64,000 bases of DNA, taken from Candidatus Nomurabacteria bacterium RIFCSPLOWO2_01_FULL_42_17. Its GTDB lineage: Bacteria; Patescibacteriota; Minisyncoccia; Phycocordibacterales; UBA9973. This document shows positions 52,227 through 54,446 of the stretch, piece by piece. Under the pieces are notes generated by a model that was not told the origin of the DNA, did not search any database, and saw only the letters and a program-made list of their open reading frames with translations. Every line of letters starts with the position of its first letter. The stretch's first letter is position 1. The DNA is taken from assembly GCA_001785985.1 (NCBI GenBank), contig MFVE01000005.1:112533-176532 (forward strand), written 5' to 3'. The position numbers and the translations under genes were made by a program.

Positions 52227-54446
52227 TCACTTCTTCTCCAAACGTATTTTTAGTACTCCAATTTCATCTCGCAATATCGCCGCTGTTTCGAAATCTAATT
52301 CTTTGACAGCTTTGTTCATTTCTTTTTCTTTTATTTTTATTATTTTTTCATAAACTACTCTGTTGCGTTCTTCATCAGATAAATTTTTGTCATACTTTTT
52401 ACCACCTACGTCAAGACTACGGCGGGCCGCAGTAAACAATTCAACATCAAGCGCTAATTCTGCGTTGACTGTCTTTGCATGTTCGCTCTCCACCTCTTGC
52501 GTAATATCTTCTATCTTTTTCATTATCGTCTTTGGGGTAATACCATGCTTTTTGTTGTAAGCAATCTGTATATTTCGCCGACGGGCAGTTTCTCCTAAGG
52601 CTTTTTCCATAGCATCCGTCATAATATCAGCATAGAGAATCACTTTGCCCTCGCTATTTCGCGCCGCGCGACCAATAGTCTGAATCAGTGATGTTTCGGA
52701 GCGTAAAAATCCGGCTTTGTCTGCATCTAGAATTCCAATCAAGGCCACTTCTGGTAAATCGAGCCCTTCACGCAAGAGGTTCACCCCCACCAAGACATCA
52801 AAGTCTCCTTTGCGAAACTGTGTAAGGATTTTAATTCGCTCCATTGTTTTAATATCGCTATGTAAATATTCTGCTTTGATTTTTTTGTCCTTTAGATAAA
52901 CAGAGAGGTCTTCCGCCATTTTCTTAGTCAACGTCGTAGCAAGCACGCGAAAACCTTTGGCAATTGTTTTTTCTGTTTCTTTTATAAAATCCTGAATCTG
53001 ACCGGGATATTTATTTTCATTCGGCAAATGACCAGTCTTTTGTTCAGGTCCTCGGTTCTCCGGGGCCCCTCCCCCCGGCCAGACCGTTCCAAAAGTCTGT
53101 TCACTTGCCGAACTAGCACTGACCGGCCGTACAATTGTCTCTGGGTCCACCAGCCCCGTCGGACGGATAATTTGCTCCACAATCTGCTCACTTTGGCTGC
53201 GCTCTTGTTCGCTCGGAGTAGCACTCGTATAAACCACTTGCCCAATACGCTCCTCGAATTCCTCATACTTGAGGGGCCTATTGTCTTTGGCTGATGGCAA
53301 ACGAAAGCCATATTCTACAAGGGTGTTTTTACGTGAAGCATCTCCTGCATACATACCCTGAAGTTGAGGTAGAGTAACATGTGATTCATCGATAATGGTC
53401 AAAAAACCTGGGCCTCCTTCGCTCCTGCTTCGGCGGGCCGAAGGAAAATAAGATAATAACGTCTCTGGCGGCTCACCTTCGCTTTTACCAGATAAATGTC
53501 GTGAATAATTTTCAATGCCATTACAATAGCCGACCTCGCGGATCATCGCTAGATCATAATTAGTGCGTCGCTTGATACGCTCAGCTTCTAAAAGTTTTCC
53601 CTCTTTGTTAAATTTTTTTAGCTGGGCTTCCAGTTCTTTTTTAATATTCACTAACGCTCTTTTCTTTTTTACATCCTCGGTAATAAAATGTTTTGCCGGA
53701 AAAATAAAAATGCCTGCCCGTCCTTTGGCGGGTTTTACTTCTTTAATAATTTTAGAAGAAATGGGATCAACTTTTATTATTTTTGCTATTTTTCCATCCG
53801 AGAATTCTATCTGATACATAATAGATTCAGACACTGGCATAAATTCCACTCGCGAGCCGAGAGATCGGAAACTGCCGGGGGTTAAGTCTGCATTAGTACG
53901 CTCAAAATGAATTGCAATAAGAGATTTCATTAAAGTCATGCGGTCCATCCTCTCCCCGACTTCCAACTTTAGATTAACTTTCTCATATTCTTCCGGAGAA
54001 CCTAATCCATAAATACAAGACACAGAAGCGACGATGATAACGTCCGGCCTAGTGAGTAGGGCTTGCGTGGAAGCATGACGAAGCATGTCTATTTCTTTAT
54101 TTATAGAAGCGTCTTTTTCAATATAAGTATCTGAGGCGGGCATATATGCCTCTGGCTGGTAATAATCATAATAAGAAACAAAATAATGTACCGCGGAGTC
54201 TGGAAAAAACAATCTGAACTCTTGAGCCAGTTGCGCGGCAAGAGTTTTGTTGTGCGCGATGACGAGTGTCGGCTTGTTGTACTGGGCAATTACATTCGCC
54301 ATCGTAAAAGTCTTGCCCGTGCCGGTGGCGCCGAGTAATGTCTGTTTTTTCATACCGCTCGTGAGACCCTCCACCAATTTTGAAATAGCTATCGGCTGAT
54401 CTCCGGCTGGCTGAAATGGATTGTGTAGCTTAAAGATAGCTTTCAT
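52227..54446 (-). CDS. uvrB: Excinuclease ABC subunit B with two in-frame GC-rich insertions
   Basis: Helicase motifs (GATGTGKTFTMA; DESH; ...), a beta-hairpin region and a C-terminal UvrB/UvrC interaction helix (EERNRVVYEKIIKIKEKEMNKAVKELDFETAAILRDEI). Confidence 0.95.
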   Translation of the reverse strand: MKAIFKLHNPFQPAGDQPIAISKLVEGLTSGMKKQTLLGATGTGKTFTMANVIAQYNKPTLVIAHNKTLAAQLAQEFRLFFPDSAVHYFVSYYDYYQPEAYMPASDTYIEKDASINKEIDMLRHASTQALLTRPDVIIVASVSCIYGLGSPEEYEKVNLKLEVGERMDRMTLMKSLIAIHFERTNADLTPGSFRSLGSRVEFMPVSESIMYQIEFSDGKIAKIIKVDPISSKIIKEVKPAKGRAGIFIFPAKHFITEDVKKKRALVNIKKELEAQLKKFNKEGKLLEAERIKRRTNYDLAMIREVGYCNGIENYSRHLSGKSEGEPPETLLSYFPSARRSRSEGGPGFLTIIDESHVTLPQLQGMYAGDASRKNTLVEYGFRLPSAKDNRPLKYEEFEERIGQVVYTSATPSEQERSQSEQIVEQIIRPTGLVDPETIVRPVSASSASEQTFGTVWPGGGAPENRGPEQKTGHLPNENKYPGQIQDFIKETEKTIAKGFRVLATTLTKKMAEDLSVYLKDKKIKAEYLHSDIKTMERIKILTQFRKGDFDVLVGVNLLREGLDLPEVALIGILDADKAGFLRSETSLIQTIGRAARNSEGKVILYADIMTDAMEKALGETARRRNIQIAYNKKHGITPKTIMKKIEDITQEVESEHAKTVNAELALDVELFTAARRSLDVGGKKYDKNLSDEERNRVVYEKIIKIKEKEMNKAVKELDFETAAILRDEIGVLKIRLEKK
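53020..53135. repeat. Roughly 105-bp GC-rich in-frame insertion in uvrB with a palindromic core CGGTTCTCCGGGG-ccctcc-CCCCGGCCAGACCG (53053-53086)
   Basis: It encodes SASSASEQTFGTVWPGGGAPENRGPEQKTGHLPNENKYPG between the conserved RPV and RVLATTLTK segments, about 35 aa longer than E. coli UvrB there. Confidence 0.55.
53407..53451. repeat. Family-B GC-rich palindromic element in frame in uvrB
   Basis: CCTGGGCCTCCTTCGCTCCTGCTTCGGCGGGCCGAAGGAAAATAA encodes SARRSRSEGGPG just upstream of the DESH helicase motif. It shares CCTCCTTCGCT..GCTTCGGCGGGCC.AAGGAAAA with the uvrC copy. Confidence 0.7.

Follow-up and report, generated by a model that had tools for sequence, protein, structure and literature searches.

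Short hairpin-forming repeats of several kinds are known. Repetitive extragenic palindromic (REP) sequences and bacterial interspersed mosaic elements (BIMEs) are 20 to 40 nt long and extragenic, have a conserved GTAG-type head and are served by REP-associated tyrosine transposases (RAYTs); like elements of the IS200/IS605 type, they are imperfect, strand-specific hairpins thought to be recognised as single-stranded DNA, without classical terminal inverted repeats or target-site duplications. The Rickettsia palindromic elements (RPEs), i.e., RPE-1 and related repeats, are described (Ogata et al. 2000 Science 290:347, as summarised in PMC10969869 and PMC6649704) as palindromic repeats of approximately 100 to 150 bp that form several families and lie in frame in housekeeping genes as well as between genes. 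RPEs are reported to lose their repeat identity over time (PMC6649704). [quoted passage not shown] Here, we analysed a stretch of 64,000 nt (the window) from Candidatus Nomurabacteria bacterium RIFCSPLOWO2_01_FULL_42_17, a member of the candidate phyla radiation (CPR)/Patescibacteria, in which the gene of the excinuclease subunit UvrB carries a GC-rich insertion. We consider it probable (roughly 0.7) that this insertion is a copy of a dispersed family of hairpin repeats of about 90 nt, resembling the RPEs in kind, which is translated as a disordered loop and is still constrained as nucleic acid.

The uvrB product is 100% identical to excinuclease ABC subunit B of this organism. Its alignment with solved UvrB structures fell into two blocks (residues 5 to 443 and 481 to 733), with no break in the reference chain between them (428 to 428). 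The 37 residues between the blocks are therefore extra (Table 1). The insertion that the original prediction had placed in uvrB, GC rich and centred on a palindrome, is thus real. GC content peaks at 0.65 over positions 53040 to 53099, compared to 0.40 for the whole window, and the uvrB reading frame is intact throughout. The same gene has a second, shorter insertion at residues 336 to 345, which falls at the other insertion hot spot of UvrB (see below) and probably represents a hairpin element that is small or has decayed.

Table 1. Coordinates of uvrB and of its inserted segments in the window
Feature	Position	Strand	Evidence
uvrB coding sequence, host gene of the element (739 aa)	52227..54446	minus	List of open reading frames; E 2.8e-221 against solved UvrB structures
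In-frame insertion ASSASEQTFGTVWPGGGAPENRGPEQKTGHLPNENKY, residues 444-480	53007..53117	minus	Gap in alignment with PDB structures; ortholog alignment; empty-site DNA of L208 and L209
Hairpin element proper, 93 nt, family A	53020..53112	minus	Inverted repeat; RNA fold; covariance model
5' outer arm (element orientation) TTCGGCAAGTGAACAGACTTTTG	53090..53112	minus	Fold; compensatory changes compared to the orthologous copies of L081 and L083
Conserved asymmetric core GGTCTGGCCGGGG-GGAGGGG-CCCCGGAGAACCGAGGACCTGA	53044..53085	minus	Fold; same core in uvrA, in an intergenic spacer and at at least 120 metagenome loci
3' outer arm CAAAAGACTGGTCATTTGCCGAA	53020..53042	minus	Inverted repeat; fold; ortholog comparison
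Second in-frame insertion ARRSRSEGGP, residues 336-345, GC rich, palindrome CTTCGGC-GG-GCCGAAG	53412..53441	minus	10-residue gap in alignment with PDB UvrB; fold

In the hairpin element, a basal stem is followed by a conserved core, which is asymmetric, and by a stem-loop at the apex. Its 23-nt outer arms are 87% complementary, and the 93 nt were predicted to fold as RNA into a single hairpin with a minimum free energy (MFE) of -52.1 kcal/mol (z = -4.15), a stability that was reached by none of 200 shuffled sequences; the DNA fold of the same element gave z = -3.7. The core comprises the helices GGTCT/GGACC, GG/CC and CCGGGG/CCCCGG, with the bulges GA and AGAA on the 3' side, and is flanked by an internal loop made of GAAC (53086 to 53089) and TGA+A (53043 to 53046), in which TGA represents the last three bases of the core. 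The palindrome quoted in the original prediction does exist in this structure, but it is imperfect (a 6-bp perfect stem followed by bulged pairs), its spacer had been given one base too short, and it corresponds only to the tip of the 93-nt hairpin, the 23-nt outer arms having been missed.

We then searched the window for further copies. The window copy itself, which was absent from the training set of our covariance model R1, scored 74.9 bits (E 2.9e-15) at 53011 to 53117 on the minus strand, and it was the model's only significant match in the 64 kb; a BLAST search of the element against the window did not detect a second copy either. A relationship to rluA had been proposed on the basis of a shared 12-mer, CCCCGGCCAGAC. 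This 12-mer recurs at 14513 to 14524 (not at 14517 to 14535 as had been reported), with an E value of 0.41, which is a chance-level match; five further 12-mers from this 141-nt query likewise matched the window, and model R1 found nothing significant at the 12-mer site in this pseudouridine synthase gene. The idea of a third element type, or of a larger composite one, was borne out insofar as the element is of a distinct type with one copy in the window, but a composite is unsupported, the element being a single hairpin of about 93 nt.

To follow the insertion in related proteins, we used the 120 closest UvrBs, which are 74 to 83% identical to the query and all Nomurabacteria/Paceibacteria-like. 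About half of them have only a linker of 4 to 5 residues at this site (VRPVS-EKNN-YKGQI); compared to the closest of these insert-free orthologs (SEKNNY), the net gain in the window is about 32 residues or 96 nt. The remaining orthologs carry inserts of 10 to 42 residues that belong to at least six unrelated peptide families, labelled A to G; family A is the type of the window (QTFVNGLAGVGDPENRGPEQKT), and the others are B to G. An equally long linker of conserved sequence was therefore not what the alignment revealed, half of the orthologs being insert free and the rest bearing unrelated sequences of differing lengths. This comparison supports an inserted GC-rich palindromic element and not a native UvrB linker. 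In a neighbour-joining tree of the 120 proteins, which is rough and poorly resolved and served solely to judge the patchiness of the families, the insert families were interleaved with empty sites, and half-elements and tandem remnants were also present. Extra residues accumulate at two main hot spots, one near residue 336 (at least 12 extra residues, and 12 to 39, in 33 of the 120 orthologs) and one near residue 447 (62 of 120). Families A, B, C and E are shared by both hot spots, and at the first of these they occur as full-length hairpins or as remnants.

At the DNA level, the five families examined at the uvrB site (loci L081 to L087) each consist of a hairpin of 75 to 135 nt with a GC content of 0.47 to 0.57, compared to 0.37 to 0.44 for the gene. 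An empty site (L208) reads GGT GAA AAA AAT AAT TAC; in the filled sites, family A lies 5' of the GAA codon, and the position of families B, C and E is 3' of GAA GG. Judged from these junctions, A and B/C/E are separate insertions a few nucleotides apart. No evident target-site duplication was seen when filled and empty uvrB sites were compared. We also considered the re-use of a single ancestral stem by different cores at this site and rejected it, since families A to E have unrelated outer arms and insertion points that differ by a few nucleotides.

Further copies were present within 10 kb of the uvrB genes of relatives: uvrA and the uvrA-uvrC spacer hold family A, polA is a host of families B and D, and pnp contains family E; family B also recurs at the other uvrB hot spot, and family D in uvrC. 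Family C has a second, inverted copy within the same uvrB. Between ruvA and rpsT of a family-D-bearing relative (L086, 20081 to 21136), we noted an open reading frame (ORF) for an RVT_1 reverse transcriptase; there is no evidence tying RVT_1 to the hairpins. The metagenome contig L081 encodes two full-length, divergent UvrBs head to head (7431 to 9677, minus strand; 10001 to 12250, plus strand), each with uvrA nearby. Family A occurs at the same site in both genes in opposite orientations, the element of the second gene being shortened. Either the gene is truly duplicated, or two strains were assembled into a chimeric contig. On another contig (L013; JBAPNK010000015.1, 1,730 nt), an 81%-identical uvrB runs into the contig end at residue 452, which is the insertion site, suggesting that the hairpins break short-read assemblies.

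Family A was then searched for in metagenomes with the pattern GGTCTGGN{12,42}GAACCGAGGACCTGA. This search returned at least 122 matches at at least 120 loci, including one tRNA gene matched by chance, and 107 distinct copies among the matches listed form the basis of the copy statistics. A central, nearly invariant core, GAAT-GGTCTGGCYGGG-loop-CCCRGAGAACCGAGGACCTGA, is shared across the loci, and the internal loop of the family is of the form GAAT / TGA-R; in the window copy, whose core is 42 nt long, GAAC replaces GAAT. The outer stems of 15 to 26 bp are unrelated in sequence between loci and always self-complementary; the apical stem-loop is variable and is extended in six loci (L082, L104, L139, L150, L155 and L167). 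The median length of the family is 92 nt. With the covariance model, more, and more diverged, copies were found in relatives, including in uvrA, in uvrC and at a Campbellbacteria locus. Family A is widespread in Nomurabacteria/Paceibacteria of the CPR. The same core pattern gave 0 matches in viral contigs, and hence no sign of a phage vector, and a search of Rfam at E values of up to 10 yielded no family match, the sole match being a spurious long noncoding RNA. In the chance tRNA match (L206), the variable-loop/T-arm region of the tRNA gene agrees base for base, over 15 to 17 nt, with the family-A core in reverse complement (TCAGGTCCTCGGTTC...). This likeness may be a coincidence or a hint of a tRNA-derived core; as one chance match, it is a lead only. 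Hammerhead-like CUGA..GA motifs were tried as well and did not fit the family-A consensus.

These results bear on a much simpler explanation, in which the segment would be a native, fast-evolving UvrB linker, or a quasi-palindrome that arose by local template switching, unrelated to any other locus. The length of the loop indeed varies among orthologs, and template switching is discussed as a process that creates and perfects local inverted repeats (PMC6649704). This explanation is already contradicted, and we give it next to no credence: the same 40-nt core with its bulges recurs in genes and spacers that are unrelated, at over 100 other loci, the model recovers the window copy with the E value given above, the same families occupy the second uvrB hot spot as well as polA, uvrA, uvrC and pnp, and close orthologs have empty sites.

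The 107 copies are predominantly intragenic. In 83 of them, the element lies inside a stop-free frame of at least 120 codons, in sense orientation in 26 cases and in antisense orientation in 57; the other 24 were classed as intergenic and fill short spacers in convergent, divergent or tandem gene arrangements. The 78 nonredundant host frames of at least 200 residues match 81 Pfam families, with UvrD-type helicases (10), KsgA (8), SMC/RecN (6), PheT (6), class I tRNA synthetases (5), MnmA (5), the CCA enzyme (5) and TsaD (4) as recurrent hosts. The flanks of the 107 copies revealed no repeated or conserved target motif, only an A/T preference, and the ends as defined by the fold are fuzzy. A comparison of element length modulo 3 between coding and intergenic copies was uninformative because of these fuzzy ends, and GC skew as a function of element orientation tracked the orientation of the host gene, so that it says nothing about the replication strand.

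We next asked which features of the hairpin are maintained. In a gapless alignment of 55 copies, changes occurred on both sides in 19 of the 21 outer-helix pairs, and the covariation score was 0.478, compared to 0.141 in shuffled alignments (0 of 500 reached the observed value) and to 0.12 to 0.26 for slid registers. In the apical stem, pair 41-55 is C-G in 27 copies and U-A in 26. Invariance in the core extends to positions that the search pattern leaves free (C40, G42 to G44, C52 to C54, G56, the T and A runs and A31), and the asymmetric bulges (GA and AGAA) and the internal loop are kept in all copies, while both stems vary. Four uvrB genes with family A (the window, L081, L082 and L083) had been collected by protein similarity. 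Their products are 83 to 85% identical, their fourfold-degenerate sites are saturated (identity of 0.29 to 0.37), and synonymous differences extend right up to the element boundary. Nevertheless, all four share ATGGTCTGG and GAACCGAGGACCTGA without any difference. Identity in the outer arms is about 89% among these orthologs, with compensatory differences (A-T and G-T in the window versus G-C and G-C in L081). Moreover, the 5' half of the core is read in another frame in the window (TVWPGGGAP versus NGLAGVGDP) with its bases unchanged. Thus, since the same core bases are kept in different frames while fourfold sites are saturated, the constraint acts on the nucleotides and not on the peptide.

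The strand that folds was addressed through the imperfect pairs of the outer stems. On the strand with GGTCTGG...CCTGA, G.T wobbles outnumbered A.C mismatches 103 to 46 (p 3.5e-6), and this excess was seen in antisense copies (59:20) and in intergenic copies (29:13), though not in sense copies. The folded form that matters hence seems to be a particular strand of the element and not the host mRNA. Since pairing is kept and the core is held, a folded nucleic acid, preferentially of this strand, would still be recognised or constrained by something.

This constraint could also be read as host use. The core with its stem would then be a domesticated motif, a binding or processing site selected at each locus, and the coding location would be secondary; its partner could be a regulator, an RNase or a protein of the nucleoid, of replication or of repair. 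The identity of the core among uvrB orthologs regardless of frame, the bulges and internal loop retained in all copies over varying stems, and the short gene-gene spacers that are exactly filled by intergenic copies are consistent with such a role. So is the comparison of copies on one contig: all five same-contig pairs differ at variable core positions, which leaves concerted evolution within a genome unsupported and argues against homogenisation by gene conversion, so that conversion fails to explain the invariance. However, the uvrB site is patchy: half of the close orthologs lack any insert, others carry unrelated families, and half-deleted remnants are common. Such easy loss or replacement would not befall a site that is needed. 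In addition, the copies lie in either orientation with respect to transcription and in genes of at least 81 Pfam families without a common gene context, and no Rfam family matches. We regard host use as unlikely.

Removal of the segment after transcription was considered too. A hairpin-guided excision and ligation of mRNA, for example, would mean that the extra residues (such as the peptide TFGTVWPGGGAPENR) are never made, and strict upkeep of stem and core in essential genes would be expected if both were needed for removal. Unusual insertions are known in rRNA genes of CPR bacteria. Splicing, however, imposes no constraint on the frame, and every coding copy is frame open and stop free, in frames that differ between loci. 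Two-thirds of the coding copies are antisense, so that the mRNA bears the complement of the conserved core; the wobbles of antisense copies favour the element strand and not the mRNA strand; and Rfam provided no match to a known ribozyme or intron. Such removal is very improbable. A self-splicing intron, intein or ribozyme was rejected on similar grounds, namely, the lack of an Rfam match, a length of 37 residues that is far too short for an intein, and the fact that all coding copies are in frame and stop free. Judging from the frames, coding copies are most simply read through and translated.

In the UvrB protein, the insertion falls at the point that corresponds to VRPT|KGQIDDL of Bacillus caldotenax UvrB, directly ahead of the first helix in the second, RecA-like helicase domain. 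An AlphaFold2 model gave predicted local distance difference test (pLDDT) values below 50 and no secondary structure for residues 443 to 481 and 338 to 346, which cover both inserts, and the helicase motifs flanking the insert are intact and invariant among orthologs. In the simplest reading of this model, the insert would be a tolerated, disordered surface loop rich in Gly, Pro and Ser.

For the RPE-like reading that we favour, the course of events may have been as follows. Family A would have spread by some form of transposition, and the copies that survived selection would be those in frame, free of stops and placed in surface loops that tolerate them, as with RPEs. After insertion, the copies do not decay freely: their stems stay paired through compensatory changes, and their core is held at the nucleotide level. 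The most speculative step is that a trans-acting enzyme may act on the single-stranded hairpin, as in the IS200/IS605 and REP/RAYT systems; our preferred guess, suggested by the strand asymmetry alone, is an intermediate in the form of a single-strand hairpin that is recognised by way of its asymmetric core.

Several observations weigh against this reading. No transposase turned up (no aimed search was made, and the flanks were not screened for one), nor did a target-site duplication or a conserved target motif, so that mobility is deduced from the distribution alone. The window holds one copy only, and same-contig copies differ in their stems and at variable core positions, giving no sign of recent bursts. 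The conservation of the core in situ across saturated divergence is unlike the behaviour of a decaying selfish element and favours a host function or a maintenance process. The search pattern itself fixed 22 of about 40 core positions, so that the apparent invariance of the core is inflated in the metagenome set. The G.T asymmetry is not present in sense copies (15:13). Finally, translation of the insert is read from the open frame alone, and the AlphaFold2 model is mediocre (mean pLDDT of 62) and was computed from an alignment of shallow diversity. In a second, doubtful but conceivable reading, the elements would be no selfish repeats in passive decay but a new class of structured nucleic acid module in CPR bacteria. 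An invariant asymmetric core of about 40 nt would be mounted on locus-specific, covarying stems and kept by purifying selection at each locus, and a putative dedicated factor would recognise it as a single strand and either mobilise the module into tolerant protein loops, unlike transposition through terminal inverted repeats, or use it for a host function.

Set against the described systems, family A resembles the RPEs most in kind. Both are short palindromic repeats of several families, with many in-frame insertions in unrelated housekeeping genes and others between genes; both add a peptide segment that is compatible with protein function, have no known transposase or mechanism and live in dependent hosts with reduced genomes. 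The likeness claimed is one of kind and not of membership, since the hosts belong to different phyla (CPR/Patescibacteria versus Alphaproteobacteria) and no sequence relationship is expected or shown. In contrast to RPEs, conservation in family A resides in an asymmetric central core, with locus-specific, covarying stems, and the same two UvrB loops are struck by several families. Moreover, core and pairing are kept across saturated host divergence, whereas RPEs are described as losing their identity, although half-deleted remnants do exist at the uvrB site. These differences leave room for a motif used by the host or, with less likelihood, for an intervening sequence acting at the RNA level.

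The imperfect hairpin with asymmetric bulges is also reminiscent of REP/BIME-RAYT and IS200/IS605 systems, and the preference for G.T over A.C on one strand fits a single-strand intermediate. We rejected an assignment to REP/BIME because family A is too long, mostly intragenic and without a conserved head. As to IS200/IS605, the flanks show no conserved tetranucleotide beyond the A/T preference, and no search for a Y1/HUH transposase was made. Family A further shares with MITEs that it is small, nonautonomous, multicopy and foldable, and MITEs, too, lie in frame within ORFs on occasion. What defines MITEs is a set of conserved terminal inverted repeats, together with target-site duplications, that derives from a parent insertion sequence, and a classical MITE was rejected: the termini of family A are its least-conserved part, its outer arms are locus specific, no duplication is evident, and its conserved columns are central (T run, GAAT, core and A run). 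The organelle hairpins are similar in being embedded in coding sequence, in the active maintenance of arm complementarity and in gains and losses between lineages, but those of Nematomorpha are locus-specific perfect repeats without a shared core, whereas the asymmetric core of family A is common to more than 100 loci.

In-frame palindromic repeats in housekeeping genes are a textbook oddity of Rickettsia, and the CPR/Patescibacteria would add an unrelated and much larger set. Their occurrence in a second lineage of dependent bacteria with tiny genomes suggests a recurrent outcome of genome reduction and not a one-off. Such elements would inflate and diversify protein lengths in CPR bacteria, break assemblies and alignments, and can pass for protein domains specific to a lineage. 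The conserved core with its covarying stems, as captured by the covariance model and the strand preference, gives a handle for finding the factor that recognises it, and the elements offer an approach to the question of how essential enzymes gain new surface loops by insertion. A full-text literature search retrieved no description of such elements in CPR bacteria; most subscription journals lay outside its scope, and prior work is possible.

Other hairpins were observed in the window. The polA gene (ORF 58460 to 60988, minus strand), which also hosts hairpin families B and D in relatives (L084 to L087), contains an in-frame GC-rich hairpin at 60416 to 60483 with a 14-bp perfect stem (ATCCCGTTAGAGGC / GCCTCTAACGGGAT), encoding ...NPVRGREGSQRPSASNGI.... 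Two in-frame GC-rich hairpins unrelated in sequence to family A are present in murB (ORF 9578 to 10738, minus strand), at 10005 to 10080 and 10450 to 10522; the first is a near-perfect hairpin of about 75 nt with an MFE of about -44, and the Pfam MurB_C match of the product spans 133 residues over 99 profile positions. GC-rich palindromic segments were further noted in three conserved genes: thyA (about 5425 to 5475; ORF 4930 to 5967), the product of which has a thymidylate synthase Pfam match of 314 residues over 266 profile positions; a Sua5/TsaC-like gene (11479 to 11541; ORF 11354 to 12073); and an ABC ATPase gene (44057 to 44117; ORF 42882 to 44417), where the segment encodes a peptide of the ...RERGGVRV... 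type, like the PLL-KERG/GEG arms of hairpin family E. The spacer at 54723 to 54800, between tRNA-Lys (54649 to 54722) and a sensor kinase-like ORF starting at 54843, is GC rich and forms two stem-loops (MFE of -46.9 for 101 nt), with no match to family A. Perfect AT-rich intergenic hairpins lie at 15826 to 15875, 44786 to 44819 and 44871 to 44917, with stems of 23, 16 and 18 bp, respectively, the first of which overlaps the 3' end of tRNA-Arg (15758 to 15832); they probably serve as terminators or form another class of repeat, and they differ from the GC-rich hairpins in coding sequence.

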